From: an uncultured virus (IMG/VR IMGVR_UViG_3300017917_005385)
Taxonomy: Duplodnaviria > Heunggongvirae > Uroviricota > Caudoviricetes
DNA: 64,000 nucleotides
Direction: 5' to 3' (one strand)
Virus record (IMG/VR): IMGVR_UViG_3300017917_005385
Made by a program: the position numbers and the translations under genes
Notes under the pieces: model-generated
Told to the model about the DNA's origin: nothing
Databases searched by the model: none
Seen by the model: only the letters and a program-made list of their open reading frames with translations
In this document: positions 2,621 through 47,238 of the stretch, piece by piece
Position numbering within the stretch: the first letter of the stretch is position 1
Layout of the letters: each line of letters begins with the position of its first letter

Positions 2621-3397
2621 ATGAATTACAATCCGGTCAAACAAACAAAAAATTATGAAAAAAACAACACAACAGAGCCAACTTTTGCTGATATATATAA
2701 TATAAATTATTCGGGTGAGCAATCACCATTAAAGGCAAAAAACGGCAATATTGAGGATGAACTAATGACTCCTCAACCAAAAAATGAACGGCAAATTATG
2801 GAATCGAAGGCGATTTTATTTAGCGAACAAGAAAAAATCTTTAGAGAAAGAACGGGTAAGGATTTCTCTACACTTTACACAAAGTATTACCCAAAATTAG
2901 TTTATTTTACTTCAAAAATTACTAATGACCCTCAAAAAGCCGAAGACATCTCAACAGACTCATTCATGGCGGCTTTTGAAAAAATTGAGAAATATGAAAA
3001 AGAAAAATCTCAATTTTCTACCTGGCTATTTACAATAGCAAAAAACTTAGCACTTCAAGATCTTAAAAGCGAAAAGAAAACTATGTCTCTTGACATTGAG
3101 TTTGATGATGAAGGTACAACTATGAAAGACTTTATCCAAGAAGAGGATAATGACAATCATTTACATGAAATTCATGCTAAAAAGGCTGAGATCATGAAAA
3201 GACACATATCAAACCTGAAAAGTCCATATCGTGATGTTATTGAAATGAGAGAGCTTAAAAGAATGTCATATAAAGATATTTCTGATAAATTAAATCTTAA
3301 CCTATCAACTGTAAAATCTCAAATTAGAAATGGAAGAGCTATATTAGTTCGTGAAACTAAGAAAGAGTTTGATGCAATTGATGAAATGCTAATGTAA
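2621..3397 (+). CDS. ECF-type sigma-70 family RNA polymerase sigma factor (true start may be downstream)
   Basis: Region 2 (AEDI...F...QFSTWLFTIAKN) and region 4 HTH (MSYKDISDKLNLNLSTVKSQIRNGR). Confidence 0.88.
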   Translation: MNYNPVKQTKNYEKNNTTEPTFADIYNINYSGEQSPLKAKNGNIEDELMTPQPKNERQIMESKAILFSEQEKIFRERTGKDFSTLYTKYYPKLVYFTSKITNDPQKAEDISTDSFMAAFEKIEKYEKEKSQFSTWLFTIAKNLALQDLKSEKKTMSLDIEFDDEGTTMKDFIQEEDNDNHLHEIHAKKAEIMKRHISNLKSPYRDVIEMRELKRMSYKDISDKLNLNLSTVKSQIRNGRAILVRETKKEFDAIDEMLM

Positions 3398-8550: not shown

Positions 8551-8576
8551 AATTGAAATTTATTAAAAAACAAAAT

Positions 8577-8981
8577 ATGACACTGAAAGAAAAAATTAAT
8601 GCTGACTTTATGACAGCATTTAAGTCAAAGAACATGGTAGCAAAGAGTATCCTTTCTGTTGTAAAGGGTGAGATTCAAACTGTTGAGAAAAACACTGGTT
8701 CAGATAATCTTTCAGATGCTGAGGTAACTAAGATCCTAACAAAAACTGTTAAGTCTCTTAAAGAAACTATTGCTCTGGCAAATGATGAAAAATCTAAACT
8801 TGAATTAGAAGTTCTTGAGGTATATCTACCAAAACAAATGTCCAAGGAAGAAGTTACTTCTAAGGTAAATGAGTTAGTTGGTTTAGGTATCACTCAAATC
8901 GGTGCTATTATGAAGGAGTTTGCTTCATTACCAGCTGATAAAAAAATGGTTTCAGAAGTTATCAAAGAAGTTATCAAATAA
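8577..8981 (+). CDS. GatB/YqeY domain protein
   Basis: LKEKINADFMTAFKSK...ELEVLEVYLPKQMS...IGAIMK. Confidence 0.88.
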   Translation: MTLKEKINADFMTAFKSKNMVAKSILSVVKGEIQTVEKNTGSDNLSDAEVTKILTKTVKSLKETIALANDEKSKLELEVLEVYLPKQMSKEEVTSKVNELVGLGITQIGAIMKEFASLPADKKMVSEVIKEVIK

Positions 8982-9017
8982 TTTGGTAACTTCTGATTTT
9001 ATCCTTATATTTGATAT

Positions 9018-9269
9018 ATGGAAGAGAACAAAATCAAGAAGATATTAGTAGGAGTTTTAATTGTAATCTCTGCCTTTGCATTTTACAATCTTTACTCAAC
9101 AAGAGATTATAAACTAACTGTTTGTAATGGTTCAGGTATAACTTATATGGAAACTTTCATCTATTGTGATTCATTTGAAATGGTTTCTACTAAAGAAGTT
9201 AAATTCTGGATTGACGGTAAAGAACAAACAGTTTTAGCAACTGATTGCGTTAGAGTTGAAACAAATTAA
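9018..9269 (+). CDS. hypothetical membrane-anchored protein
   Basis: N-terminal transmembrane segment; upstream promoter. Confidence 0.6.
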   Translation: MEENKIKKILVGVLIVISAFAFYNLYSTRDYKLTVCNGSGITYMETFIYCDSFEMVSTKEVKFWIDGKEQTVLATDCVRVETN

Positions 9270-9304
9270 GATATATTTTATATAATATAAAAAAATTATA
9301 AAAT

Positions 9305-9517
9305 ATGCCTTATTTAAGAAACAATGGTGTGTACTCAAAAGAAGAGTATGTAGGTAAATCAATTGACGAAGCTAAAAAATATGCCGAACAAGGCGGATTT
9401 ACAATTAGAATAGTTGAAGAAGATGGTAAATCATTTATGTTAACAGCTGATGTTAAATCTGATAGACTGAACTTCAGAGTAACAGGTGGATATGTAACTG
9501 ATGTCTACGGAGGATAA
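9305..9517 (+). CDS. small protein resembling the I78 peptidase inhibitor family
   Basis: YVGKS...RIV...TADVKSDRLNF...V..G pattern. Confidence 0.55.
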   Translation: MPYLRNNGVYSKEEYVGKSIDEAKKYAEQGGFTIRIVEEDGKSFMLTADVKSDRLNFRVTGGYVTDVYGG

Positions 9518-9529
9518 AAAAAATAAAAA

Positions 9530-9675
9530 TATTTGGTGAATTAAAAAAGACACCGTATATTTGTATAACAAAACAAGAAAATAAAAAAAATTCATATAAA
9601 ATTTGGTAAATTTAAAACTTTTTACTAATTTTGTATAAAATAAATCAAAAGAGACAAAAACTTTTTAATATATAA
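9530..9675 (+). promoter_or_regulatory. tandem Bacteroidota-type promoters plus AATATATA motif upstream of tRNA array 1
   Basis: TTTG...TATATTTG (9532-9563), TTTG...TAATTTTG (9602-9633), TTTTTAATATATA; near copies at 33084-33260 and 43808-43880. Confidence 0.75.
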
Positions 9676-9679
9676 ACAA

Positions 9680-9778
9680 ATGAGAACATTTAATACACAT
9701 AAACATTTTAGTAAATCGAATAAGTGGTTTAGCAACCAGTTCGGTACTGAAAGTGTATTGCTCTCAAATAAGATGTAA
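9680..9778 (+). CDS. leader peptide 1 (His/Phe/Lys/Trp): MRTFNTHKHFSKSNKWFSNQFGTESVLLSNKM
   Basis: Short ORF between promoter and terminator; H/F/K/W codons match the downstream tRNAs. Confidence 0.8.
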   Translation: MRTFNTHKHFSKSNKWFSNQFGTESVLLSNKM

Positions 9779-9805
9779 CAAATCTATTTATACAAGACAA
9801 TATTC

Positions 9806-9846
9806 AAAAGTCCGAACTTAACAAAAAGTTCGGACTTTTTTGTTTT
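9806..9846 (+). terminator. attenuator terminator 1
   Basis: AAAAGTCCGAACTT/AAGTTCGGACTTTT stem plus U tract; leader AGTTCGG (9738-9744) complements the 5' arm. Confidence 0.88.
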
Positions 9847-9850
9847 ATAT

Positions 9851-9936
9851 GGTGTCGTTATTGTTAACGGAGAGTCGCAAGACGAGCATCTGGCTCTGTG
9901 AAAGCCAGGGTACGGGTTCGAATCCCGTACGACACC
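9851..9936 (+). tRNA. tRNA-His(GTG), G-1 encoded, hairpin insertion in D-loop
   Basis: Anticodon loop ctGTGaa; C73; TTCGAAT T-loop. Confidence 0.75.
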
Positions 9937-9943
9937 CAAACAA

Positions 9944-10016
9944 GGAACCTAAGCTAATCAGGTGAAAGCACTGGACTGAAAATCCAGGGAGCCCGGATCG
10001 TTACCGGGAGGTTCCA
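9944..10016 (+). tRNA. tRNA-Phe(GAA)
   Basis: ctgga-ctGAAaa-tccag; T-loop ATCGTTA. Confidence 0.85.
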
Positions 10017-10023
10017 CTAAAAT

Positions 10024-10097
10024 GGTGAATGTAGCTCAATCGGTAGAGCGTTGGTTTGTGGAGCCAAAGGCAGCGGGATCGTAACCCGTCATTCACC
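10024..10097 (+). tRNA. tRNA-His(GTG), G-1 encoded
   Basis: ttggt-ttGTGga-gccaa; C73. Confidence 0.88.
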
Positions 10098-10102
10098 CAA
10101 AA

Positions 10103-10174
10103 GGAGACTTAGCTGAGACGGTTTAGCGTCTGGTTGAAGCCCAGAAGAGGTCGGTTCGATTCCGGCAGTCTCCA
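10103..10174 (+). tRNA. tRNA-Phe(GAA)
   Basis: tctgg-ttGAAgc-ccaga. Confidence 0.85.
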
Positions 10175-10180
10175 CAAAAT

Positions 10181-10262
10181 ACAGGTACTCATTGGTGTGA
10201 CCAGCCGGTTCCAACCCGGTAATTCGTAAGAGTGGCTGTAGGTTCGAGTCCTACTACCTGTG
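10181..10262 (+). tRNA. atypical tRNA-Trp(CCA) with non-canonical D and variable regions
   Basis: acaggta/tacctgt acceptor; gccgg-ttCCAac-ccggt; canonical T arm. Confidence 0.6.
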
Positions 10263-10277
10263 CTAAAAGACAAACCT

Positions 10278-10348
10278 ACGGGTGTGGTGAAATGGTATCA
10301 TGACGGTCTCCAAAACCGTTGTTCTTGGTTCGAGTCCAGGCACCCGTG
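10278..10348 (+). tRNA. tRNA-Trp(CCA)
   Basis: acggt-ctCCAaa-accgt; G73. Confidence 0.88.
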
Positions 10349-10436
10349 CAAAATGATTAAGATGATGAAAACTAAGTTGAAATATAAACGCTAGGCAACG
10401 ACCAAATGAATACGGGTCGTTGCCATTAAAAACAAT

Positions 10437-10509
10437 GATTCCGTAGCTCAATTGGTGGAGCTTCCGGCTTTTAACCGGAAGGATGTGGGTTCGAGTCCCA
10501 CCGGGATCA
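10437..10509 (+). tRNA. tRNA-Lys(TTT)
   Basis: tccgg-ctTTTaa-ccgga. Confidence 0.9.
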
Positions 10510-10518
10510 CTAAATATT

Positions 10519-10605
10519 GATTCTGTCGCTTAGTGGCTATAGCAACTGGCTTTTAACCAGTAGAGATAATGTTCTCAACCGTGGGTTCGAGTCCCACCAG
10601 GATCA
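10519..10605 (+). tRNA. tRNA-Lys(TTT), long variable arm
   Basis: actgg-ctTTTaa-ccagt; gaga/tctc variable stem. Confidence 0.8.
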
Positions 10606-10611
10606 CAAAAC

Positions 10612-10695
10612 ACTCCTGTCGCTCAGAGGCCGAGAGCAACTGGCTTTTAACCAGTAGACGAAAGTCCATCGTAGGTTCGAATCCTACCAGGGGTA
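10612..10695 (+). tRNA. tRNA-Lys(TTT), long variable arm
   Basis: actgg-ctTTTaa-ccagt; gac-gaaa-gtc variable stem. Confidence 0.8.
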
Positions 10696-10700
10696 CAAAT

Positions 10701-10785
10701 GACTCCGTTTCCGTAGAGGCCGAACGGTTCTGACTCTTAATCAGATGACGAAAGTCCACCGTGGGTTCGAATCCCACCGGGGTCA
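10701..10785 (+). tRNA. tRNA-Lys(CTT), long variable arm
   Basis: tctga-ctCTTaa-tcaga; gac-gaaa-gtc variable stem. Confidence 0.8.
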
Positions 10786-10877
10786 CAAATTGAAACTAAA
10801 AACTAAAAAGTAATTTTTTAGATAATTTTATAGTTTTTAGTTTTAATATATACATGAAATAAAATATATTTTTGTGT

Positions 10878-11420
10878 ATGAAAGAAGAAATAATTAAACT
10901 AATAAATGAGGGTTTTACATATGATGATATTACTAAAAAATTAGGTTGTTCTAAAAGTACAATATCTTATCATTGTAATAAATTAAATTTAAAAAGTAAA
11001 AGTAAAAATATAGATGTAAATAGTGAACTTGTAAATAAAATTAACGAATTGTATAAATGTGGAAATAGCTCTTATACAATATCAAAAATTTTAGGAATTT
11101 CAAAAAGTACAGCTCTTAAATATATTAGTAAAGAAAATATAAGGACTAAGAAAAAAACTAAAACTAAAAAGGATAAGTCCGAATACATAATGAGATGGAA
11201 GAAAAATCTTAAAAAGAGTTTAGTTGAATACAAAGGATCTAAATGTGAAATTTGTGGATATGATAGATGTATAGAGGCTTTAGAATTTCATCACTCTGAT
11301 CCAAGTAAAAAGGATTTTTCAATATCTACAAAATTATTTGGAATTGAAAAAATGAAAAAAGAAGTAGATAAATGTTTACTGTTATGTTCTAATTGCCATA
11401 GAGAAAAACATTATTTATAA
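10878..11420 (+). CDS. HNH homing endonuclease with N-terminal HTH repeats
   Basis: CEICGY...LEFHH...LLCSNCHREKH; two HTH-like segments; lies within the tRNA region. Confidence 0.85.
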   Translation: MKEEIIKLINEGFTYDDITKKLGCSKSTISYHCNKLNLKSKSKNIDVNSELVNKINELYKCGNSSYTISKILGISKSTALKYISKENIRTKKKTKTKKDKSEYIMRWKKNLKKSLVEYKGSKCEICGYDRCIEALEFHHSDPSKKDFSISTKLFGIEKMKKEVDKCLLLCSNCHREKHYL

Positions 11421-11428
11421 TAAAATTA

Positions 11429-11558
11429 GGGGATGTAGCTCAGTGGTAGAGTTTAAAATATCTCTTTTGAGGTTTTACCTTGAAAAAGTGTTGATTAAAA
11501 GAGTTACTTCGTTTGAATTGAAATCAAAAGGTCGTTGGTTCGAATCCAACCATCCCCG
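11429..11558 (+). ncRNA. tRNA-like RNA with a long stem inserted between the D arm and anticodon arm
   Basis: ggggatg/catcccc acceptor, canonical D and T arms, insert pairing ctcttttga/ttaaaagag followed by TTACTTCG. Confidence 0.6.
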
Positions 11559-11639
11559 CTAAAAAAATATTTGTAAATCTCAGAAAAAAGATTTACTTTT
11601 GTAGAAACAAAGAATAAAAAATTAATATATAATAAAGTT

Positions 11640-11717
11640 ATGAAAACAATTATGCTTACATCGAAGTCGTCAAGTAGTCGCTCGTCAAAAACGAGTGAGG
11701 TTCGATCGTATTCATAA
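11640..11717 (+). CDS. leader peptide 2 (Ser/Arg-CGN): MKTIMLTSKSSSSRSSKTSEVRSYS
   Basis: 10 of 25 codons are Ser; Arg codons CGC and CGA; followed by a terminator and Arg-ACG plus four Ser tRNAs. Confidence 0.85.
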   Translation: MKTIMLTSKSSSSRSSKTSEVRSYS

Positions 11718-11742
11718 TAGTCGTATAAATAAGATATTATGT

Positions 11743-11780
11743 AAACCCTTCGAACCAAAAGTTTGAAGGGTTTTTTGTTT
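11743..11780 (+). terminator. attenuator terminator 2
   Basis: AAACCCTTCGAAC/GTTTGAAGGGTTT plus U tract; leader GGTTCGA (11699-11705) complements TCGAACC. Confidence 0.88.
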
Positions 11781-11785
11781 TATAT

Positions 11786-11858
11786 GGTTCCATCGTCCAA
11801 TTGGACAGGACACTCCGCTACGAACGGAGAAATGAGGGTTCGAATCCTTCTGGAACTA
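11786..11858 (+). tRNA. tRNA-Arg(ACG)
   Basis: ctccg-ctACGaa-cggag. Confidence 0.9.
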
Positions 11859-11863
11859 CAAAT

Positions 11864-11947
11864 GGAGAAGTAATTTGGCCGGCGCCAAACACAGTCTTGA
11901 AAACTGCTGGTACCTTCGGGTATGGGGATCGACACCTCACTTCTCCG
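11864..11947 (+). tRNA. tRNA-Ser(TGA)
   Basis: ctTGAaa loop; long variable arm; G73. Confidence 0.8.
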
Positions 11948-11952
11948 CAACC

Positions 11953-12035
11953 GGAAGGAGTCCGAATGGACGAGGACACCGCCTTGAAAGCGGCTGGGTC
12001 GAAAGGCTTTGGGGGTTCGATTCCCTCTTCTTCCG
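11953..12035 (+). tRNA. tRNA-Ser(TGA)
   Basis: ccgc-ctTGAaa-gcgg; long variable arm; G73. Confidence 0.85.
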
Positions 12036-12040
12036 CAACT

Positions 12041-12126
12041 GGAGAGTAAACTAGTCAGGGTACTAGCACCGCCTGCTAAGCGAGTGGCACGGTAAAACGT
12101 GTGAGTTTCGAATACTCTGCTCTCCG
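12041..12126 (+). tRNA. tRNA-Ser(GCT)
   Basis: cgc-ctGCTaa-gcg; long variable arm; G73. Confidence 0.8.
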
Positions 12127-12133
12127 CTAAATT

Positions 12134-12219
12134 GGAGAATAAACTGATGAGGTCATCAGCCACGCCTGGAAAGCGTCGGGTACGTTCAATCGTATGGGTT
12201 TCGAGTACTCTGTTCTCCG
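12134..12219 (+). tRNA. tRNA-Ser(GGA)
   Basis: acgc-ctGGAaa-gcgt; long variable arm; G73. Confidence 0.8.
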
Positions 12220-12237
12220 CAACAAATAATAAATAAT

Positions 12238-12546
12238 ATGGAAGCAATTTACACAAGATTCTCAAGAAGAGAGACATCGTTTGAAAACACATTAATTCTT
12301 TTACAAGAATTGTTAAATGAAAGATTGTTACCAGATTACAAAAGAATTTGGGTTCAAGCTTCTAATTCCGGTAGAACAAGATTCTGCTTTACTATATTTC
12401 CTAATACAGGACAATATACTATGAGATTCCTAGATGCTGGCTCTTTTAGACAATTCAGAACAGATGGTAATTTAGAGGAAGAAATAGACTTAATAGAGAG
12501 GTTTATAGATTCTTTAAGATCTAATACACTAAATGGTGTTATATAA
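12238..12546 (+). CDS. hypothetical protein
   Basis: ORF after the Ser array, ending at a terminator. Confidence 0.6.
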   Translation: MEAIYTRFSRRETSFENTLILLQELLNERLLPDYKRIWVQASNSGRTRFCFTIFPNTGQYTMRFLDAGSFRQFRTDGNLEEEIDLIERFIDSLRSNTLNGVI

Positions 12547-12572
12547 AAAAGAGGCATTTGCCTCTTTTTTTT
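12545..12572. terminator. bidirectional intrinsic terminator
   Basis: AAAAAAGAGGC-attt-GCCTCTTTTTT between convergent genes. Confidence 0.8.
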
Positions 12573-14223
12573 AATATACTTTTCTTAAAACAAACATAGT
12601 GGAATATATTATGTTACTTGTACTTGCTGTGTTCCACTCTGCTGTGATACTTAATGTATTAGATATTGTTGTATCAAATGTTGTACTATTTATAGTACTA
12701 AAATCAGAACCCTCAAGTGTTACACCTGAGTCCTTAATATAAGTAAATGCACCTGAAGATGCTATAACTGCTATACCAGCCGGACCTACATTTCTTATTG
12801 TAAATAAAACCTCGACATTCCAGTTTCTATCTGTTGATGTATCTAAGTCTATAGCTCCCGTATCTGCAAATAAAACACCAGCGATTGTTTTTATTCTAAT
12901 AGTAAGAGTAGCTGTACCTAAACATGATATTTTACCAGCCATTCTCAAGAAATAACTATCACCTATAGCAAAATTATTTGCCGGAACTGTATAAGCCCCA
13001 ACTCCTGTACCAATTAAACTTGTTTCAACTACTGTGTTTGTTATGGTATTTCCATTTGATGTTTGAGCAAATAATCCAACTGGTGGTGTTGATCCTGATG
13101 TACCTGATGAACCGGATGTTCCACTTGTTCCTGATGAACCGCTAGTTCCTGATGAACCGCTAGTTCCTGATGAACCTGATGAACCATCAGCTCCAAAAAG
13201 TGAATAACTAATTGAATATGTTTTTGTATCTTGATAATTACCTACTGAACCAGATATAAATGAAACATTTAGTTGAATATATGTTGTGTTATCGACCGAT
13301 GAAGTAACAGAATATAAGCCAAAACGAGATGTATCTTCAATATCTGTTATTTTTATATGAGCCTTTGAGTTATAAGAATTTACATAATCATTAAGAGATA
13401 ACAACCAATTATATACATTTGTTGAATTTAAATCATTTATATTAATATAAATTACTGTAGATGAATTTATAACTGGAGTATCTGTGTCAAATCCTTGACT
13501 TGAAGAACCCACACTACCTAACGAATATATCCATCTTAAACTATTAGACCCATCTAAACCACTAGATCCTTGAGATCCTTGAGCACCACTTGTACCAGAA
13601 GATCCAGATGTACCACTAGACCCTGAAGTACCAGAAGATCCAGCCGAACCAACAGTACCTGATGTTATCCATCCTATAGAATAACTACTACCACTGGTTA
13701 CTGAACCATTATATGATATCATCGTACAACTAAAATCCCAGAAAGTTCCTAGGTCATTAGAAGTCATTACTTGAAATATAGCGTAATTGTTAGGTGAACC
13801 AGCCTCTGATATTTGTAAATATCCTTGTCCTGAATATAGTGATATATAAGTACCTAATGATGATAACCAGTTCTGAGCATTACCATTTGCTGATGTATAG
13901 TTTATTTTGACATTATTAGAGGGTGATGATAAAGGTCCTGTTAAACTAAACTGACCATTTACTGTTTCAAGTCCATTTACCCATCTTAAATTATTAGATC
14001 CATCTGCACCTTGTGCACCATTAACACCTGAAGTTCCACTGGATCCTGAAGTTCCACTTGATCCACTTGATCCTGTTCCTGCACCTGAACCTACTTCAGA
14101 TACGGTTCCTGTGTCTGTTTTTATTCTAAGTTTTCCATCTAGGTCTAGTGCTAATAAAATACCAGATGATGGAGTTGGTGCTCCTGTAACATCGATATAT
14201 GTCGAAAATAAAATTGAACTCAT
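12571..14223 (-). CDS. Gly/Ser/Thr repeat (GSSGTS) protein, probable tail fibre or virion surface protein
   Basis: Three blocks of G-x-x repeats; two related internal domains begin DGSNxLRW. Confidence 0.7.
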   Translation of the reverse strand: MSSILFSTYIDVTGAPTPSSGILLALDLDGKLRIKTDTGTVSEVGSGAGTGSSGSSGTSGSSGTSGVNGAQGADGSNNLRWVNGLETVNGQFSLTGPLSSPSNNVKINYTSANGNAQNWLSSLGTYISLYSGQGYLQISEAGSPNNYAIFQVMTSNDLGTFWDFSCTMISYNGSVTSGSSYSIGWITSGTVGSAGSSGTSGSSGTSGSSGTSGAQGSQGSSGLDGSNSLRWIYSLGSVGSSSQGFDTDTPVINSSTVIYININDLNSTNVYNWLLSLNDYVNSYNSKAHIKITDIEDTSRFGLYSVTSSVDNTTYIQLNVSFISGSVGNYQDTKTYSISYSLFGADGSSGSSGTSGSSGTSGSSGTSGTSGSSGTSGSTPPVGLFAQTSNGNTITNTVVETSLIGTGVGAYTVPANNFAIGDSYFLRMAGKISCLGTATLTIRIKTIAGVLFADTGAIDLDTSTDRNWNVEVLFTIRNVGPAGIAVIASSGAFTYIKDSGVTLEGSDFSTINSTTFDTTISNTLSITAEWNTASTSNIIYSTMFVLRKVY

Positions 14224-24315: not shown

Positions 24316-24378
24316 ATTTGTATAATAATTGAAAAAGGGACTAAACTTTTTTAATATATACACATACAATAAAAACAT

Positions 24379-24536: not shown

Positions 24537-24614
24537 ATGAACACTGTTATGAACATAGCGTATTATTATGAGGGGGAGCGTAGCTCAAACGTCAGACTAA
24601 TGTCTATGTCGTAA
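24537..24614 (+). CDS. leader peptide 3 (Tyr/Glu): MNTVMNIAYYYEGERSSNVRLMSMS
   Basis: TAT TAT TAT GAG GGG GAG; followed by a terminator and Glu/Tyr tRNAs. Confidence 0.85.
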   Translation: MNTVMNIAYYYEGERSSNVRLMSMS

Positions 24615-24636
24615 TGGTTTCATTATGATATTAACT

Positions 24637-24673
24637 AACCCAGTCTGACTTATCAGACTGGGTTTTTTGTTTT
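24637..24673 (+). terminator. attenuator terminator 3
   Basis: AACCCAGTCTGA/TCAGACTGGGTT plus U tract; leader GTCAGACT (24591-24598) complements AGTCTGAC. Confidence 0.9.
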
Positions 24674-24690
24674 AAAGTTCTTTGAAATTT

Positions 24691-24777
24691 GGGAGTATAA
24701 CGTCAGCGGCATGTTAGAGCCGCCCCTAAACAAATAGACGTATAGAGGTAACTTGTGTGCAAATCCAGGTGCTCCCA
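24691..24777 (+). ncRNA. atypical tRNA-like element, no assignable anticodon
   Basis: gggagta/tgctccc-A acceptor-like stem; cgtc/gacg and gcggc/gccgc helices; degenerate T arm. Confidence 0.4.
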
Positions 24778-24783
24778 CAAAAT

Positions 24784-25628: not shown

Positions 25629-25694
25629 CAAATAATAAAAAAAATTAAAAGGGAAGATAAAACTTTTTATATATACTTTAATATAATTAAAACG

Positions 25695-25775
25695 ATGAAA
25701 AATTTAACTAACATATCAACAGCAATAATCGAAGGCGGCGCGGGAGCGAATGTCACTGGCTGGTTTATGTTATAA
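25695..25775 (+). CDS. leader peptide 4 (Ile-ATA/Gly/Ala): MKNLTNISTAIIEGGAGANVTGWFML
   Basis: GCA ATA ATC GAA GGC GGC GCG GGA GCG; followed by a terminator and Ile/Gly/Ala tRNAs. Confidence 0.85.
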   Translation: MKNLTNISTAIIEGGAGANVTGWFML

Positions 25776-25799
25776 TCTTTCATCAAAAGAAGTAAACGG

Positions 25800-25836
25800 A
25801 ACCCAGTCAGTGAAAATTGACTGGGTTTTTTTATTT
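25800..25836 (+). terminator. attenuator terminator 4
   Basis: AACCCAGTCAGT-gaaa-ATTGACTGGGTT plus U tract; leader CACTGGCTGG (25754-25763) pairs with CCAGTCAGTG. Confidence 0.9.
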
Positions 25837-25917
25837 CGGCAGATACCGGTCCAATCTTATACATTGGATATCCGTAGTGGTAAGTTGAAAACGTGGGTTC
25901 GAATCCCACTCTGCCGA
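25837..25917 (+). tRNA. D-arm-less tRNA-like RNA with TAT (Ile) anticodon
   Basis: cggcaga/tctgccg; tccaat-ctTATac-attgga; canonical T arm; no D stem-loop. Confidence 0.6.
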
Positions 25918-25929
25918 CAAAAGATATAA

Positions 25930-26119: not shown

Positions 26120-26124
26120 CAAAT

Positions 26125-26207
26125 GCGGGTGTCGTATAACGGTAGGTAATTCGACATTACACCTGGCTTCCAACCAGGAGACGAGGGTTCGACTCCCTTC
26201 ACCCGCT
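26125..26207 (+). tRNA. tRNA-Gly(TCC), expanded D-loop
   Basis: cctgg-ctTCCaa-ccagg; U73. Confidence 0.8.
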
Positions 26208-26214
26208 CAACTAT

Positions 26215-26290
26215 GGGGATGCATGTACCAAGGCTTTGGCGAGTCTGCTTTGCAAGCAAACTGTGGTGGGTTCGATTCCCATCATCTCCA
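26215..26290 (+). tRNA. tRNA-Ala(TGC)
   Basis: ttTGCaa loop; G3:U70. Confidence 0.78.
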
Positions 26291-26601
26291 CAAAATGAGT
26301 ATGACTATATTTAAATATTTAGTAGATGGTAAACTTTACTTCTTGTATAAAGGAGTTAAGGGTTATATTGCTATACCATTTGAACATAGTGGTAGCACAA
26401 TATCAAATCCCGACTTAAAAGAATTTGTACCAGTTGAATTTGGTAGTGGTTCTAATGGATTTGTATAAAAATAAAATTGAGTATGAAAAAGGTATTAACA
26501 GGCGAATTTGAATCAAGTAGAAAGAATTTAAGAAGAGATATAAATAAAAGTGTTTTGACTAAATTAATTAAAAGATTGAAAAGTAAGAGAAAATAAAATA
26601 A

Positions 26602-27413: not shown

Positions 27414-28235
27414 ATGAAAACAAAAGACACCTTCGGGGATCGTATGAAAATGTACGAAAACCAAACCTGTGGAATTAGATTAATTCCCAGAATTCCAGTA
27501 ATTGCCCGTCTTGATGGTAAAGGATTCTCTAAATTTACTAAAGGTCTTAAAAGACCGTATGATGAAAGACTATCTAAATTGATGATTGAAACTACTAAGT
27601 ATTTAGTTAAAGAAACTAATGCAAACTGTGGCTATACTCAATCTGATGAAATCACTTTAATGTGGTACACTGATAAGATCGATGCTTCAATTTATTTTGA
27701 TGGTCGTTTATTTAAGATGCTTTCCGATCTTTCGGCTATGGCTTCTGTATTCTTTAATAGAAAACTTAGCGAATATCTTCCAGAAAAGGCTGATAAGATG
27801 CCTAGATTTGATGCTAGAGTTTACAACGTTCCAACTTTAGATGAGGCGATGAATTCATTCCTTTGGAGAGAACAAGATGCAACTAAGAACTCAATTACTA
27901 TGGCGGCTTCTCATTATTACTCTCACAAAGAGTTACACGGAAAGAATGGAAATGAAAAACAAGAAATGCTTTTTCAAAAAGGTGTTAATTGGAATGATTA
28001 CCCAACTTTCTTCAAGAGGGGTACTTATGTACAAAGAAAAAGAGTTTTAACTCCTTTCAGCGCTGAAGAGATTGAAAAACTACCAATTAAACACAATGCT
28101 AGAAAAGATCCTAGTATGTTAATTGAAAGATGGGTTATTGATGTGGTTGAATTACCTAAACTATCAAGTATTGAAAATTCTGTTGAAGTTATTGTTTTTG
28201 GTGAAGAACCTAAATTAAAAAGTCCAGTTATTTAA
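27414..28235 (+). CDS. Thg1-like protein (tRNA-His guanylyltransferase family, 3'-5' polymerase)
   Basis: RLDGKGFSKFT, YTQSDEI, FDAR, WREQDA.KNS. Confidence 0.92.
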   Translation: MKTKDTFGDRMKMYENQTCGIRLIPRIPVIARLDGKGFSKFTKGLKRPYDERLSKLMIETTKYLVKETNANCGYTQSDEITLMWYTDKIDASIYFDGRLFKMLSDLSAMASVFFNRKLSEYLPEKADKMPRFDARVYNVPTLDEAMNSFLWREQDATKNSITMAASHYYSHKELHGKNGNEKQEMLFQKGVNWNDYPTFFKRGTYVQRKRVLTPFSAEEIEKLPIKHNARKDPSMLIERWVIDVVELPKLSSIENSVEVIVFGEEPKLKSPVI

Positions 28236-29510: not shown

Positions 29511-29534
29511 TTATATTTGCTTAAAATAGTAAAT

Positions 29535-30155
29535 ATGATTAAAGTATTAGGTGAGATTCCAAAGTCAGAATTTGGCATTGCTTGTTCAGGTGGTGTTGAT
29601 TCTATGGCTATTCTTGACTTCTTAGTTAAGGGTAAATATAATCCACATGTTCTTTACTTTAATCACAACACCGAACACGGTCACGAAGCTGAAAAGTTTA
29701 TCACAGACTACTGCAATCAAAAAAGTCTTAAATTGACTATTGGTAGGACTGATTTAAAACCTGAGACTAATAAAGAAAAAATCTGGTCTGATTTAAGGTA
29801 TAATTTTTTTTCAAAGTTTGATTTTCCTATTATTACTTGTCACCATTTAGACGATTGTGTAGAAACTTATTTGTTTTCTTGTTTAAGGGGATTTCAATCA
29901 GTTATTCCTTATTCAAAAGGAAATGTTATTAGACCATTTTTATTAAATGAGAAATCTGAATTTGAAAAGTGGTGTAAACAAAAATCTGTACCTTTTATTC
30001 AAGACTATTCAAATGATTGTCTAGATTATTCAAGAAATAGAATTAGACATAAAATTGTACCAGAATCTTTACTTGTAAATCCAGGACTTAAAACTGTGGT
30101 TAGAAAAATGATTAAAATTCAAATTTATAATCAAGTTCAAAATTATTCTTATTAA
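29535..30155 (+). CDS. tilS: tRNA(Ile)-lysidine synthetase, short form (PP-loop domain only)
   Basis: SGGVDS, RY.FF, HHLDDCVET, IRPFL, D.SN....SRNRIRH. Confidence 0.88.
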   Translation: MIKVLGEIPKSEFGIACSGGVDSMAILDFLVKGKYNPHVLYFNHNTEHGHEAEKFITDYCNQKSLKLTIGRTDLKPETNKEKIWSDLRYNFFSKFDFPIITCHHLDDCVETYLFSCLRGFQSVIPYSKGNVIRPFLLNEKSEFEKWCKQKSVPFIQDYSNDCLDYSRNRIRHKIVPESLLVNPGLKTVVRKMIKIQIYNQVQNYSY

Positions 30156-33069: not shown

Positions 33070-33263
33070 AATATTTTAGAAAGTATTTGGTGAATTAAAA
33101 AACACACCGTATATTTGTAAAACAATTGAGAGAGGCAACGATTTAGATACAAATTTCAATTTTTTTTACAAATTTTAGAAAAAAATTAGGCAAACTTAAA
33201 ACTTTTATCTATATTTGTATAAAATAAGTCAAAAGGAACAAAAACTTTTTAATATATACAACA

Positions 33264-33374
33264 ATGAAAACAATGAATTTAAATATGAATCTTAATCTAA
33301 CAGTGGTGAATACGTTATGTATTAGACCAGTGGAGGGTTTTGCCATATCTAAAAATTTGTTTTCAGTCAACTAA
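33264..33374 (+). CDS. leader peptide 5: MKTMNLNMNLNLTVVNTLCIRPVEGFAISKNLFSVN
   Basis: Codons 3-21 use only T, M, N, L, V, C, I and R(AGA), the isotypes of the downstream array. Confidence 0.85.
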   Translation: MKTMNLNMNLNLTVVNTLCIRPVEGFAISKNLFSVN

Positions 33375-33402
33375 TGTAAGACAAATAAACTAAAGATAAG
33401 TG

Positions 33403-33434
33403 AAACCCTCAGACAAAAATCTGAGGGTTTTTTT
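33403..33434 (+). terminator. attenuator terminator 5
   Basis: AAACCCTCAGA/TCTGAGGGTTT plus U tract; leader GAGGGTTT (33333-33340) complements AAACCCTC. Confidence 0.9.
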
Positions 33435-33502
33435 ATGCCTGTCCTCCTGAACATTTGGTGTTGGTTCGGGAGGACATGAAAAAGGAAAACACCATACCAC
33501 AT

Positions 33503-33582: not shown

Positions 33583-33667
33583 TGGTAGGTACCCGAGCGG
33601 TATTCAGGGACTAGTCTGATACACTAGGTGAGAAATCACGACATGGGTTCAAATCCCATCCTACCAA
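33583..33667 (+). tRNA. tRNA-Ile(GAT), long variable arm
   Basis: ctagt-ctGATac-actag; gtga/tcac variable stem. Confidence 0.78.
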
Positions 33668-33673
33668 CAACAT

Positions 33674-34006: not shown

Positions 34007-34094
34007 TGGCAGGTAGCCTAGTGGTTCAGGCACCAGACTGTTAATCTGAGAGAAGAAATTCTCAACGTGGGTTCGAATCCCACCCTGTCAGCCA
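34007..34094 (+). tRNA. tRNA-Asn(GTT), long variable arm, CCA encoded
   Basis: caga-ctGTTaa-tctg; gagaa-gaaa-ttctc. Confidence 0.78.
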
Positions 34095-34723: not shown

Positions 34724-34807
34724 GCCGATGTGGCTCAGTGGCGACAGCACTGGTTTTGTAAACCAGAGACGAATAGTCCAACGGGGGTTCGAGTCCCTCC
34801 ATCGGCT
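34724..34807 (+). tRNA. tRNA-Thr(TGT), long variable arm
   Basis: ctggt-ttTGTaa-accag; gac-gaata-gtc. Confidence 0.8.
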
Positions 34808-34822
34808 CAAAATAAATCACCT

Positions 34823-36472: not shown

Positions 36473-37936
36473 ATGAAAAATATAGTAACAAGAATTGCAC
36501 CTTCTCCAACTGGACCGTTTGCACATATTGGTAATGTGAGAACTCTATTGTATAACTACTTTCTTGCTAAAAAGAATGGTGGTAAATTCTATGTTCGTTT
36601 GGAAGATACCGATCGTGATAGATATAATGCCTCGTTTTTAACATACTTTAAAGATATGTGTGATTGGCTTGGTATAGTACCTGATGGTTCTTATTGGAAC
36701 CCTGATCCATCTATTGGCTCATTCACTCAATCAACAAGAGATTATTCAGATAAGGTTAAATTCCTTTTAGATAAAGGTTTGGCTTACTATGCCTTTGATA
36801 CTAAGGATGATTTAGACGCACTAAAGGCTAAAGGTCTAAAGTATGACTCAACAACTCGCATGTCTATGAATAACTCATTGACTAATCCATCCACTGATAT
36901 TATGTTACAAAGTGGTGTTCCTTATGTAATTAGATTTGCTGTTCCAGCTGACTTAGATGTAACTTTCACTGATGCTATTTTAGGTGATATCACAATCAAC
37001 ACAAATACTTTAGATGATAAAGTTTTAATTAAGTCAAATGGAATTGGCTCATATCATCTTTGTAATGTTTGTGACGATCATGATATGGGTGTTACTCACG
37101 TTCTTAGAGGTAACGAGTGGGTAAACTCTACTCCTTTCCACGTTATTCTTTATAAGGCTTTTGGTTGGGATGTTCCTACATTTGCTCACTTACCTTTAAT
37201 TATGAATCCAGATGGTAAAGGTAAGTTGTCTAAGAGAACTGCTATGAAGTATGGTATTCCTATCGCACCACTTGGTTACACAGATGATAATGGTGTTTAT
37301 ACACCAGGTTGGAAAGACTTAGGATATGATCCTAAAGCATTTATGAACTATCTTGCTTTAATTGGTTGGAATCCAGGAGCTGAAGTAGAAATTATGTCTA
37401 TGGATGATATGATTAATTTATTCTCTTTAGATAGAGTTCACAAGTCTGGTGCTCGTTTCGATATGGATAAAGCTAAGTGGATGAACTCTCAATATCTTAA
37501 ATTAACAGATAACAAAGACTTGATGCCTTATGTTGATGTAGTTGACGATAGATATTCTGATGATAAATTAGACATGATTGTCTCTTTGGCTAAAGATAGA
37601 TCTGACTTTAAAACTGACTTGAATAAAATTGTTAAATTATTCTTTGATGTCCCTTCTATCGATGATAGAAGTAAATTAGATGATAACTATACAAAAGTTA
37701 TGTCAGACTTTATCAACAAAATTGATACAATTAACTTTGATGATACAAACTCAATCAAAGACACTATCTCATCAATCTGTAATGATTTAGGTGTTAAGAT
37801 GGGTAAAGTAATGCCTGGTTTAAGAATGGCTTTGGTATCCGGGATTGCTGGACCAGACTTAATGACAACAATGTCAATTCTAGGTAAAGACCAAACAAAA
37901 TTGAGAATTAATAACTCAATTACGGTAATGGCTTAA
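36473..37936 (+). CDS. gltX: glutamate--tRNA ligase
   Basis: RIAPSPTG, HIGN, RLEDTD, THVLRG.EW, KLSKR, anticodon-binding domain. Confidence 0.95.
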   Translation: MKNIVTRIAPSPTGPFAHIGNVRTLLYNYFLAKKNGGKFYVRLEDTDRDRYNASFLTYFKDMCDWLGIVPDGSYWNPDPSIGSFTQSTRDYSDKVKFLLDKGLAYYAFDTKDDLDALKAKGLKYDSTTRMSMNNSLTNPSTDIMLQSGVPYVIRFAVPADLDVTFTDAILGDITINTNTLDDKVLIKSNGIGSYHLCNVCDDHDMGVTHVLRGNEWVNSTPFHVILYKAFGWDVPTFAHLPLIMNPDGKGKLSKRTAMKYGIPIAPLGYTDDNGVYTPGWKDLGYDPKAFMNYLALIGWNPGAEVEIMSMDDMINLFSLDRVHKSGARFDMDKAKWMNSQYLKLTDNKDLMPYVDVVDDRYSDDKLDMIVSLAKDRSDFKTDLNKIVKLFFDVPSIDDRSKLDDNYTKVMSDFINKIDTINFDDTNSIKDTISSICNDLGVKMGKVMPGLRMALVSGIAGPDLMTTMSILGKDQTKLRINNSITVMA

Positions 37937-43750: not shown

Positions 43751-43885
43751 AATAATATTATTATCTTTGTACTCACAGAAGAAAAATAAATAAAAAATAA
43801 AAAAATATTTGACAAATTAAAACTTTGTTGTATATTTGTATAAAATAAGAACAAAAGGAACAAAAACTTTTTAATATATACTGAA

Positions 43886-43984
43886 ATGAAAAACTTAAAC
43901 TTAAATATTGTTAACCCGCAACCACAAGTTGTAATCGATCAGGATCCTGGTTCGAAAGGGGCTAACTATGTGGTTTTAAGTTAA
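43886..43984 (+). CDS. leader peptide 6 (Pro/Gln/Asp): MKNLNLNIVNPQPQVVIDQDPGSKGANYVVLS
   Basis: PQPQ...DQDP; followed by a terminator, Pro/Asp tRNAs and then the Gln tRNAs. Confidence 0.82.
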   Translation: MKNLNLNIVNPQPQVVIDQDPGSKGANYVVLS

Positions 43985-44005
43985 ACAAGATATTAACTAT
44001 GAAAC

Positions 44006-44045
44006 AAACCCAGTTAGTCGAAAGATTAACTGGGTTTTTTGTTTT
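44006..44045 (+). terminator. attenuator terminator 6
   Basis: AAACCCAGTTAGTC-gaaa-GATTAACTGGGTTT plus U tract; leader GGCTAACT (43960-43967) pairs with AGTTAGTC. Confidence 0.9.
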
Positions 44046-44052
44046 AACATAA

Positions 44053-44126
44053 CGGGAAGTGACTAAGGTTTTAAGCACGGGTGTTCTGGAGACATCAGTT
44101 AGTCGGTTCGATTCCGACCTTCCCGA
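44053..44126 (+). tRNA. tRNA-Pro(TGG), divergent
   Basis: cgggaag/cttcccg; ggtgt-tcTGGag-acatc. Confidence 0.7.
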
Positions 44127-44133
44127 CAAAAAT

Positions 44134-44677: not shown

Positions 44678-44731
44678 CTACTCAAAGATAGGGAGTCCGA
44701 CATTTTTAATATATAAAATAAAAAATGTCGG

Positions 44732-45313
44732 ATGAACTTGAAAGAGGAAATTAAAAATTGTTATAGTGTATCAGATTTTTGTAGATTATTAAATTTATCA
44801 CAAGGTGGTGGTGGATTTTCTAAAGCGAAAAAAATAATACAAGATAACAATCTGGATATATCACATTTTGATAAGGGTTACTTGAAAAGACAAAAGAATC
44901 CTAAAATTGAAAAGGTTTGTCCAGTTTGTGATAAGAAATTTGAAACGGTTACTTGGAGCAATAGAAAAGAAAAAGTTACTTGTTCTAAGTCGTGTGCTAA
45001 CTCTTACTTTAGAAGTGGTGTTGATAACCCAAACTGGAAAGAAGAATCATACAGAACTACTTGTTTTTATTATCACAAAAAAGAATGTATAATATGTGGT
45101 GAGGAAAAAATTGTAGAGGTTCATCATATGGATGAAAATCATATGAATAATAAACCCGAAAATTTAGTACCTTTGTGTCCTACTCATCATCAATATTGGC
45201 ACTCAAGATATAAAGAGGAAATAGAAGATAAAATATATAACTACATAAAAGAATTTAAAATGAGAACAACAACACAATACCAGCAACAACAACAAATTAA
45301 TCCAACGGATTGA
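44732..45313 (+). CDS. HNH homing endonuclease whose C-terminus reads in frame through leader peptide 7
   Basis: CPVC, CSKSC, CIICG...VHH.D.N..NN..ENL..LCP.HH. Confidence 0.85.
   Translation: MNLKEEIKNCYSVSDFCRLLNLSQGGGGFSKAKKIIQDNNLDISHFDKGYLKRQKNPKIEKVCPVCDKKFETVTWSNRKEKVTCSKSCANSYFRSGVDNPNWKEESYRTTCFYYHKKECIICGEEKIVEVHHMDENHMNNKPENLVPLCPTHHQYWHSRYKEEIEDKIYNYIKEFKMRTTTQYQQQQQINPTD
45260..45313 (+). CDS. leader peptide 7 (Gln): MRTTTQYQQQQQINPTD
   Basis: Own ATG after AATATATA (45232-45239); 6 Gln codons; terminator, three tRNA-Gln and glnS downstream. Confidence 0.85.
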   Translation: MRTTTQYQQQQQINPTD

Positions 45314-45338
45314 TAACGGTATTGTATTGTCAAAATTC

Positions 45339-45375
45339 AAACCCGAATCAATTCAAATTGGTTCGGGTTTTTTTT
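45339..45375 (+). terminator. attenuator terminator 7
   Basis: AAACCCGAATCAAT/ATTGGTTCGGGTTT plus U tract; ATTGAT..CGG around the leader stop complements the 5' arm. Confidence 0.88.
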
Positions 45376-45633: not shown

Positions 45634-47238
45634 ATGAATTTCATTGAAGAAAAAATATTAGATAAAGGTAATCTTGATAAATTAACTTTAAGATTCCCAC
45701 CAGAGCCAAATGGTTATTTACATATTGGTCACGCTAAATCCATTATCTTAAATTTTGGATTGGCTGAAAAATATAATAGACCTTGTAACTTGAGATTTGA
45801 TGATACAAATCCAACTACTGAAGATACACATTTTGTTGAATCTATAATAAAAGATATAGAATGGTTAGGCTACAAGCCTGCTAATATTTTCTATACATCT
45901 GATTACTTTGAATTTATTTACAAATGTGCTGTTACTTTAATTAAGAAAGGTCTAGCTTATGTTGATGATTCAACATCTGAAGAAATTGCTAACTTAAAAG
46001 GAACACCCACAGTTGCTGGTAAAGATTCACCATACAAGTCAAGAACTATTGAAGAAAACTTAGATCTATTTAATAGAATGAGATTAGGTGAATTTGTTGA
46101 AGGTTCTAAAATTCTTAGAGCTAACATTGATATGGCTTCTCCTAATATGATTTTAAGAGATCCTGTTATTTATAGAATAATATCTAAGTCACATCATAGA
46201 ACTGGTGATACTTGGAAGATTTATCCAATGTATGATTTTGCTCATCCTTTAAGTGATTATAACGAAGGTATTACTGATTCTTTATGTACTTTAGAATTTG
46301 AAGTTCATAGACCTTTATATATGTGGGTCTTAGAAAATTGTGATTTAGAAAATCCTTTACCAGAAGAAACTGAGTTTGCTCGTTTGAACATTGACTATAC
46401 AGTTATGTCAAAGAGAAAGTTAAAGAGATTAGTTGAAGAATCTTATGTTGATGGTTGGGATGATCCAAGAATGCCTACTATCTCTGGATTAAGAAGAAGA
46501 GGTTATACACCAAGTGCTATTAAAGATTTTTGTGATAGAATTTCTGTTACTAGAAAAGATGGTGTTGTTTCTTATTCTTTACTTGAAGAATGTCTAAGAA
46601 CCGAATTGAATAAGACTGCTCCAAGATTAATGGGTGTCATGGATCCTGTTAAGTTAGTTGTTACTAATTTTGAAGGTGAAGGATATTGTGAAATTGACAA
46701 TAATCCAGAAGATGAAAATGCTGGTAAAAGAAAAGTTTCTTATTGTAATGAATTTTGGATTGAAAAAGAAGATTTCAGAGAAGAAGCCAATAACAAATAT
46801 CACAGATTAAAGTTAGGTGGTGAAGTTAGATTAAAAGGATTGTTTATAGTTAAAGCCAATGAAATAATTAAAGATGAAAACGGTGAAATTATAGAAATCA
46901 GATGTACTTATGACCACGATGCTTGGATTGGTGTTACTGAAAAGAGGGTTAAAGGTACTATTCACTGGGTTTCTGTTAACCACGGAGTTAAGATGAAAGT
47001 AAACGATTATGATAGATTATTTATCAATAGTTCACCAGACAAAGGAGATGAAGATTTTACAACTCATGTCAATCCTAACTCATTAGTTATTAATGATAAT
47101 GCTATCTTTGAGGAAAATGTAAAAGATTGTAAAGTAGGTGTGCCTGTTCAAATGATGAGAAAAGGTTACTATGTTTTAGATAAAGATGGTAAGTCTTGGA
47201 ACAGAACTGTAAGTTTGAAAGAAGGATGGGTAGGTTAA
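45634..47238 (+). CDS. glnS: glutamine--tRNA ligase
   Basis: RFPPEPNGYLHIGHAK, IYPMYDFAH, SLCTLEF, MSKRKL, GWDDPRMPT, KGTIHWVS. Confidence 0.96.
   Translation: MNFIEEKILDKGNLDKLTLRFPPEPNGYLHIGHAKSIILNFGLAEKYNRPCNLRFDDTNPTTEDTHFVESIIKDIEWLGYKPANIFYTSDYFEFIYKCAVTLIKKGLAYVDDSTSEEIANLKGTPTVAGKDSPYKSRTIEENLDLFNRMRLGEFVEGSKILRANIDMASPNMILRDPVIYRIISKSHHRTGDTWKIYPMYDFAHPLSDYNEGITDSLCTLEFEVHRPLYMWVLENCDLENPLPEETEFARLNIDYTVMSKRKLKRLVEESYVDGWDDPRMPTISGLRRRGYTPSAIKDFCDRISVTRKDGVVSYSLLEECLRTELNKTAPRLMGVMDPVKLVVTNFEGEGYCEIDNNPEDENAGKRKVSYCNEFWIEKEDFREEANNKYHRLKLGGEVRLKGLFIVKANEIIKDENGEIIEIRCTYDHDAWIGVTEKRVKGTIHWVSVNHGVKMKVNDYDRLFINSSPDKGDEDFTTHVNPNSLVINDNAIFEENVKDCKVGVPVQMMRKGYYVLDKDGKSWNRTVSLKEGWVG

Follow-up and report, generated by a model that had tools for sequence, protein, structure and literature searches.

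The closest described relatives of the putative regulatory element reported here are the leader-peptide attenuators of enterobacteria, which include trpL, hisL, leuL and pheL as well as the multivalent thrL and ilvL. The pheM leader attenuator controls the pheST (phenylalanyl-tRNA synthetase) operon of Escherichia coli, and tRNA genes are usually held to be promoter-controlled, by growth rate and the stringent response. The general logic of leader-peptide attenuation of amino-acid operons is set out in the available text of an earlier study (PMC1183508). We analyzed a 64,000-nucleotide (nt) stretch of DNA from an uncultured virus of the Caudoviricetes (IMG/VR record IMGVR_UViG_3300017917_005385), referred to here as the window, in which a short serine-rich open reading frame (ORF) and a terminator precede genes for one tRNA-Arg and four tRNA-Ser. 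This unit, module 2, is one of seven such modules in the window. From the sequence evidence, we consider it quite probable that module 2 is a ribosome-mediated attenuator that senses the decoding of Ser and Arg-CGN codons and gates read-through into the tRNA genes. Comparison with related loci supports this reading of the original prediction through the conservation of the ORF and the terminator, a covarying antiterminator and the placement of the stop codon.

Module 2 shares with trpL, hisL, leuL and pheL a short ORF with a run of regulatory codons, the 2:3 and 3:4 pairings and an intrinsic terminator; a 1:2 pairing and a stop codon at which the ribosome would block the antiterminator are predicted for it as well. 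It would be multivalent as thrL and ilvL are, here for Ser plus Arg. Unlike the enterobacterial attenuators, it would control tRNA genes that decode the sensed codons rather than biosynthetic enzymes; it lies in a huge phage behind a candidate promoter of Bacteroidota type, as one of seven paralogous modules matched to their arrays, and has no sequence relation to any Rfam leader family. The genes under putative control (tRNA-Arg, four tRNA-Ser and an ORF of 102 amino acids, aa) fall outside the classical scope of amino-acid biosynthesis or synthetase genes. The pheM attenuator resembles module 2 in applying leader-peptide attenuation to the translation apparatus instead of biosynthesis, yet its output is a synthetase and a single amino acid is sensed; the Gln module of the window (45260-45367), in which a GlnRS gene follows the Gln tRNAs, may be nearer to pheM. 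T-boxes also couple the state of a specific tRNA to terminator read-through upstream of translation-related genes, but they bind uncharged tRNA directly and without an ORF, whereas module 2 has a conserved one. In the literature covered, which did not extend to subscription journals or to early studies of tRNA gene leaders in E. coli, no description of tRNA genes under leader-peptide attenuation was found. Module 2 is probably a variant of leader-peptide attenuation, in which a form of control known for amino-acid genes stands before phage tRNA genes.

Leader, tRNA array and alternative pairings of module 2

The leader ORF, MKTIMLTSKSSSSRSSKTSEVRSYS, occupies positions 11640-11717 of the plus strand. 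It comprises 25 codons, ends in TAA (11715-11717) and is followed directly by an in-frame TAG (11718-11720), giving tandem stops. As had been predicted from the letters of this DNA, the leader contains 10 Ser codons (four TCG, three TCA and three AGT), and its Arg codons are only CGC and CGA. Codons 8-16 consist of seven Ser, one Arg (CGC) and one Lys, and 12 of the 24 codons after the ATG can be read by the tRNAs encoded downstream (10 Ser and two CGN Arg). Ser makes up 7.9% of the 13,635 residues encoded by the 44 long ORFs of the window, and the binomial probability that a stretch of 24 codons holds 10 or more Ser is 6e-6. Among 364 short ATG-initiated ORFs in the window, only two, counting the leader, have that many. 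The codons themselves are rare in the long ORFs: CGC and CGA together account for 17 of 516 Arg codons, as against 421 for AGA, and TCG for 32 of 1073 Ser codons. CGC and CGA are codons readable by the anticodon ACG(I).

The downstream array, all on the plus strand, has the composition claimed in the original prediction (Arg-ACG, Ser-TGA twice, Ser-GCT and Ser-GGA), which we confirmed with ARAGORN for Arg and with cloverleaf folds and anticodon loops for Ser. The tRNA-Arg with anticodon ACG (11786-11859) also scores 59.8 bits with the Rfam tRNA model. Two tRNA-Ser genes with anticodon UGA and loop CUUGAAA follow at 11864-11947 and 11953-12035, scoring 43.4 and 36.8 bits, respectively, with the Rfam tRNA-Sec model (gathering score, 47). 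The third tRNA-Ser (12041-12126; anticodon GCU, loop CUGCUAA) has no Rfam or ARAGORN match, and the fourth (12134-12219) carries anticodon GGA in the loop CUGGAAA. The predicted structure of each of the four is a cloverleaf that includes a long variable arm. In the window, none of them is detected by ARAGORN or by the Rfam tRNA model; in relatives, ARAGORN assigns Ser-TGA, Ser-GGA and Ser-GCT at matching places, with Ser-GCT at the homologous place in loci L010, L022 and L024 and Ser-GGA in L010, L013, L024 and L035. The four genes (11864-12219) are tRNA-Sec-like in having 8 base pairs (bp) in the acceptor, 6 bp in the D stem, whose loop is 4 nt, and 4 bp in the T stem. Their modeled fold is non-canonical and may resemble that of allo-tRNAs.

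The elements of the module are ordered as promoter box, ORF, terminator and first tRNA, the last beginning 5 nt past the T-run, and the module measures about 180 nt. A candidate -7 box, TACTTTTG (TAnnTTTG), lies on the plus strand at 11594-11601, as indicated by motif enrichment and position, and a putative -33 box, TTTG, was read from the sequence at 11570-11573 on the same strand, 20 nt upstream of the -7 box. The longer motif TAnnTTTGTA occurs 29 times in the window, compared with 9.9 ± 3.2 times in shuffled sequences, none of which (0 of 100) reached 29. It sits 44-55 nt upstream of the leader ATG in five of the seven modules, including the copy at 11594 for module 2, and a TAnnTTTG box also lies upstream of many homologous leaders. 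The available text of a promoter study gives TAnnTTTG and TTTG as the -7/-33 consensus of Bacteroides fragilis, found as well in a strong Flavobacterium promoter (PMC2483708). The candidate boxes thus appear to point to a Bacteroidota host RNA polymerase. At the other end of the unit, the 102-aa ORF (12238-12546, plus strand) starts 18 nt after the last Ser tRNA and matches no Pfam family; it is probably the last gene of the unit and may encode a co-regulated protein. A hairpin between convergent genes, AAAAAGAGGC-ATTT-GCCTCTTTTT followed by a T-run (12545-12572, strand not assigned), is likely the end of the unit; it was read from the sequence and is absent from the list produced by the terminator scan.

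The intrinsic terminator spans 11743-11781 on the plus strand, with its 5' arm at 11743-11755, loop at 11756-11760, 3' arm at 11761-11773 and T-run TTTTTTGTTTT at 11771-11781. The hairpin scan gives a stem of 13 pairs, five of them G-C, followed by the T-run, and the energy of the hairpin is -16.6 to -16.8 kcal/mol. The complementarity reported earlier between GGTTCGA (11699-11705) and the terminator is exact: its partner, TCGAACC, is found at 11750-11756, in the terminator 5' arm plus the first base of the loop. These two stretches, segments 2 and 3 of the plus strand, form the antiterminator, with segment 2 as its 5' strand; the duplex is worth -11.3 kcal/mol and is mutually exclusive with the terminator. 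Segment 1 (11649-11665, plus strand) pairs with 11701-11718 in the minimum free energy (MFE) structure of the full leader. This 1:2 helix, the anti-antiterminator, takes in most of GGTTCGA plus the stop codons and encloses a further plus-strand hairpin, P1 (11678-11698; 8 bp and a 5-nt loop), which lies inside the ORF over the codons CGC TCG TCA AAA ACG AGT. Because the stop codon is only 10 nt past segment 2, a terminating ribosome would cover that segment. One further candidate, that the leader is a decayed tRNA whose T-loop motif survives as GGTTCGA, was rejected: no tRNA model matches over 11640-11780, and the antiterminators of the sister modules are unrelated.

We infer from this anatomy that the leader is translated, that ribosomes stall on it and that read-through is regulated, with feedback. 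An RNA carrying the 25-codon ORF would start from a host-type promoter (-7 box, 11594-11601). When Ser-tRNA and Arg-tRNA(ICG) are plentiful, the ribosome would reach the TAA-TAG stops and cover segment 2, the terminator would form and RNA polymerase would stop 5-15 nt before the tRNA-Arg gene. Slow decoding of Ser or Arg codons would instead stall the ribosome over segment 1 and P1, leaving segment 2 free to pair with TCGAACC; no terminator would form, and transcription would proceed into tRNA-Arg(ACG), the four tRNA-Ser genes and the 102-aa ORF. In the absence of a ribosome, segment 1 would pair with segment 2 and termination would be the default, as in trp. A ribosome simulation, in which -15 to +14 nt were masked around each A-site codon and the terminator 3' arm was left out, is consistent with this scheme: in all 22 homologs described below, the 2:3 helix forms with the A site anywhere from codon 2 to about codon 15, a range that contains the Ser run and CGC, and is gone from about codon 16 through the stop codon. 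Because the output tRNAs read the sensed codons, the circuit would work as a supply-and-demand homeostat with negative feedback. The decoding speed of given codons would then directly set the supply of the tRNAs that read them, and such a homeostat would explain the grouping of tRNAs into arrays by amino acid in these phages.

Conservation of the leader and its pairings in relatives

Matches to a 301-nt query over the element were retrieved from 144 phage records, two of which cover at least 80% of it. These two, the nearest relatives of the window in the phage collection, are uncultured phage genomes of 634,780 and 642,428 bp, with identities of 77.0% and 80.2%. Together with the window, contigs from IMG/VR and metagenome contigs collected in two pattern scans, they make up 22 distinct homologs. 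The first scan gave 24 loci, with six chance matches dropped, and the second gave six loci, three of them new. The dropped loci (L017, L021, L027, L028, L031 and L032) came from a 20-locus metagenome scan and were recognized as chance matches on reading their ORFs; two others, L023 and L025, are copies of L015 and L022 and do not add to the count. A pattern that ran from the terminator tail into the beginning of tRNA-Arg had no match in viral contigs.

The leader ORF is intact in all 22 homologs, with 24, 25 or 34 codons, and ends at the same TAA. Each leader carries 7-13 Ser codons and every one contains both CGC and CGA. Ser persists where its codon has moved from the TCN box to the AGY box or back, and length changes are in frame (3 and 30 nt): the distance from the start to the stop anchor takes only the values 75, 78 and 105 nt, compared with eight lengths in single-nt steps, from 46 to 53 nt, for the non-coding spacer. 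One lineage (L022, L025 and L033) carries the 30-nt in-frame insertion (…SKSSTQRVISKSSTSRSS…), which resembles a partial duplication and brings its Ser count to 11-13. The terminator is present in the full-length MFE structure of 22 of 22 homologs. In 20 of them the first base of the T-run is followed at 11-22 nt by tRNA-Arg(ACG), and these 20 also have Ser tRNAs, or anticodon loops of such tRNAs, further downstream; of the other two, L020 ends 44 nt downstream, at the edge of its contig, and L026 is discussed below. Conservation at the protein level could also be expected of a functional Ser-rich micropeptide whose position before the tRNAs is incidental, and the N-terminus MKT(I/T) and the C-terminus SE(V/I)R(L/S)YS are indeed conserved. 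However, segment 2 and the 1:2 helix fall on these very C-terminal codons, the sister leaders otherwise track their arrays, and the leader has no homolog with a known family (the Pfam scan covered neighboring proteins only), so that we regard a micropeptide as the least probable of the explanations considered.

The antiterminator pairs in 153 of 154 cells over the 22 homologs, with segment 2 of the form NNTTCGA and segment 3 of the form TCGAANN. This count includes segment 3 of L012 (TTGAATC), which was read by eye and is paired at all seven positions; the single mismatch is an A·C in L020. Position 1 is G-C, G-U or A-U, and position 2 is G-C in 15 homologs, A-U in five and G-U in two, with no mismatch. 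On the uncorrected MAFFT alignment, 93.2% of the antiterminator cells are paired, compared with at most 54.5% when the partner is slid, and the five cells with a change on both sides were equaled in only 2 of 500 shuffles. P1 is likewise supported, both by RNAalifold and by pair counts, with 97.4% of its cells paired and covariation at two positions: at pair 95/101, 15 rows have UA and three have AU, and at pair 94/102, 10 have GU, eight GC and one AU. Segment 2 is paired upstream at four or more of its seven bases in the MFE structure of 16 of the 22 homologs. The MAFFT alignment puts the terminator arms out of register, and RNAalifold recovers only P1 and part of the terminator; because the terminator and 1:2 pair counts were degraded on that alignment, we used anchor-based tables built for each sequence.

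Could the RNA act without translation of the ORF? A switch operated by RNA alone (by tRNA, as in T-boxes) or by a phage or host antiterminator protein would account for P1 and the stretch GTATTCRTAATAGT, both of which are conserved beyond coding need. The T-box model, however, had no match at E-values up to 1 over positions 9000-13000 or up to 10 over 11600-12240, and no riboswitch family matched at these two thresholds. Over the module, no Rfam leader or riboswitch family reached its threshold; the scores below it (PyrG_leader, 22.6 bits against a gathering score of 65; L10_leader, 19.7 against 44; PyrR, 21.4 against 54) are driven by the terminator hairpin, and Thr_leader scored 22.1 against 55 bits at module 1. 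An untranslated ORF also fits poorly with tandem stops, with insertions and deletions that preserve the frame and with the absence of any disrupted ORF among the 22 homologs, and the matching of codons to tRNAs across modules has no explanation without translation. We therefore consider an RNA-only or protein-mediated switch highly improbable.

The terminator could also be constitutive, an insulator that ends upstream transcription, with the tRNAs expressed from leak or from an unseen promoter and the ORF fortuitous. Elements made of a hairpin and a T-run are common here (six in 4 kb, compared with 2.3 expected), and the 7-nt complement is near chance for one sequence taken alone. Yet the roughly 5 nt from the T-run to tRNA-Arg leave no room for a promoter, and the promoter box lies upstream of the leader. 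An accidental arrangement is also hard to square with a conserved ORF, a covarying antiterminator and a design that recurs at all seven arrays and in relatives, and we find this account less credible still than a switch without translation.

Codon matching across seven modules

The window has a G+C content of 30.7%, and ARAGORN finds 47 tRNA genes in six clusters. All seven tRNA arrays are preceded by a leader and terminator module. The six sister modules, one before each of the other arrays, are located at 9680-9835, 24537-24662, 25695-25825, 33264-33427, 43886-44034 and 45260-45367. A leader beginning MRTFNTHKHFSKSNKWF, with F, H, K and W among its residues, precedes the Phe/His/Trp/Lys array; leaders containing AYYYEGE and IIEGGAGA precede the Glu/Tyr and Gly/Met/Ala arrays; MKTMNLNMNLNLTVVNTLCIR opens the leader of the Asn/Ile/Arg-UCU/Leu/Val/Thr/Met array; PQPQVVIDQDP lies in the leader of the Asp/Pro array; and the leader that starts MRTTTQYQQQQQ has a run of five Q and stands before the Gln array with its three tRNA-Gln genes. 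The sister leaders have only an N-terminal MK(T/N) in common, the remainder tracking the array that each precedes, and their modules use unrelated antiterminator sequences. Within the stretches examined, the relatives LR745206.1 and LR756502.1 carry five and seven modules, respectively. We scored the fraction of leader codons readable by each array over all permutations of leaders and arrays. The true pairing was the sole maximum among 5040 permutations in the window, 120 in LR745206.1 and 5040 in LR756502.1, in tests that are not independent because the three sequences are homologous. For the pairing of the 3' part of the leader with the 5' arm of the terminator, the true combination ranked 5 of 5040, 1 of 120 and 1 of 5040 in the same order.

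These comparisons bear on the possibility that module 2 is a general translation sensor, responsive to ribosome availability or to ribosome-polymerase coupling, in which the Ser and Arg codons are a by-product of G+C-rich stems in an A+T-rich genome. Several of the codons do lie in helices: segment 1 contains TCG, P1 contains CGC-TCG and segment 2 contains CGA-TCG. A switch of this geometry would also react if the ribosome slowed for any other reason. On the other hand, the seven leaders differ as their arrays do, with a Q run before Gln, YYY and E before Tyr and Glu, and F, H, K and W before Phe, His, Trp and Lys, the best assignment among 5040; in the homologs of module 2, Ser survives TCN-to-AGY switches and the 30-nt insertion brings extra Ser codons. 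A general sensor is accordingly improbable in our estimation. Each of the four rival explanations leaves either the module-by-module codon matching or the conserved frame unexplained.

Several observations nonetheless weigh against a codon-specific attenuator at module 2. The TCG, CGC and CGA codons lie partly within stems, so their choice is partly set by RNA structure, and a TCY codon to match the Ser-GGA tRNA is missing from the leader in the window but present in 16 of the 22 homologs. A 7-nt complement turned up in 567 of 20,000 shuffles of the region (2.8%) and in 1138 of 20,000 random windows (5.7%), and, because GGTTCGA is also the T-loop motif of many tRNAs here, the match is weak evidence when taken alone and does not reach significance for module 2 by itself. 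A duplex test that omits loop bases gave p = 0.23 for module 2, whose leader, in the cross-module matrix, pairs slightly better with the arm of another module (-13.8 kcal/mol, against -11.3 with its own). The 1:2 helix is near-invariant and without covariation, and is weak in 6 of 22 MFE structures. The homologs are related, so that the antiterminator covariation probably stems from no more than two or three independent events, and the search patterns fix parts of P1 and segment 2, which makes the invariance there a matter of construction. Finally, L026 keeps the leader and terminator with no tRNA within 800 nt; what follows them is a truncated homolog of the 102-aa ORF of the window (L026 680-871, minus strand).

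If codon-specific attenuation operates at module 2, the seven modules could together form a bank of codon-matched attenuators that acts as a per-decoder sensor of the usable tRNA pool of the host, a broader proposal that we advance only tentatively and think somewhat doubtful. Loss of host tRNAs through shut-off, starvation or an anticodon-nuclease defense would turn on only the matching phage arrays; the Gln module would also activate the synthetase gene next to it; and each array would go off again once its tRNAs had restored decoding speed. Such a bank would represent a previously undescribed, translation-sensed autoregulation of tRNA genes with a counter-defense logic. The modules allow one to ask if phage tRNAs serve to match codon usage, to replace degraded host tRNAs or to escape tRNA-targeting defenses, and units this compact could act as natural sensors of codon-specific translation speed.

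Sister modules, tRNA-like sequences and gene neighborhood

The Gln module (45260-45367) consists of a leader and terminator followed by three tRNA-Gln genes and, only 29 nt further on, a GlnRS-type gene (45634-47238), and its attenuator may gate the synthetase together with the tRNAs. An HNH-like ORF (44732-45313) is inserted between the tRNA-Pro and tRNA-Gln genes, and its 3' end doubles, in frame, as the leader of this module. In the Asp/Pro leader, the stretch GGTTCGAAAGGGG (43940-43960) is near-complementary to the terminator 5' arm of module 2 (duplex, -18.6 kcal/mol), perhaps as a remnant of module duplication. Three modules have an exact copy of the motif AACTTTTTAATATATA (9659-9674, 33243-33258 and 43865-43880) between their TAnnTTTG box and leader ATG. 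Near copies are found at 24345-24360, 25660-25675 and 44700-44715, before a tRNA-Met, module 3b and the HNH gene, respectively. With 19 matches compared with 11.7 expected, its enrichment is weak; it may be a second, phage-specific promoter or an element of the 5'-untranslated region.

Genes with a bearing on translation surround the modules. Pfam matches identify a GluRS-type gene (36473-37936) in addition to the GlnRS-type gene, a Thg1-like gene (27414-28235), a PP-loop TilS-like gene (29517-30155), a YqeY gene (8553-8981) and a member of the sigma-70 family (2621-3397).

Unusual tRNA-like sequences recur in the window. Just upstream of the module 2 promoter, a tRNA-like gene (11431-11563) has a normal acceptor, D arm and T arm and a hairpin of about 50 nt inserted between the D arm and the anticodon arm. 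Its anticodon loop is AUUGAAA (UGA), it lacks a long variable arm, and its 3' part scores 30 bits with the Rfam tRNA model; L011, L019 and L039 also have this gene ahead of the leader. Unannotated tRNA-like sequences also lie between the terminators and the first ARAGORN tRNA at 9851-9941, 24689-24781, 25836-25927, 33436-33500 and 44051-44131. The loops CUGUGAA (His-like, with an 8-bp acceptor) and CUUAUAC (Ile-UAU-like) are among them, and their D regions are all odd. Two further odd tRNAs, Gly-UCC-like and Ala-UGC-like, lie within 26124-26293. Lastly, several Lys, Trp, Ile, Asn and Thr tRNAs at 10519-10786, 10181-10263, 33583-33668, 34007-34094 and 34724-34808 have a variable region with a 12-15-nt hairpin that brings their length to 82-88 nt, which is unusual for tRNAs that normally belong to class I.

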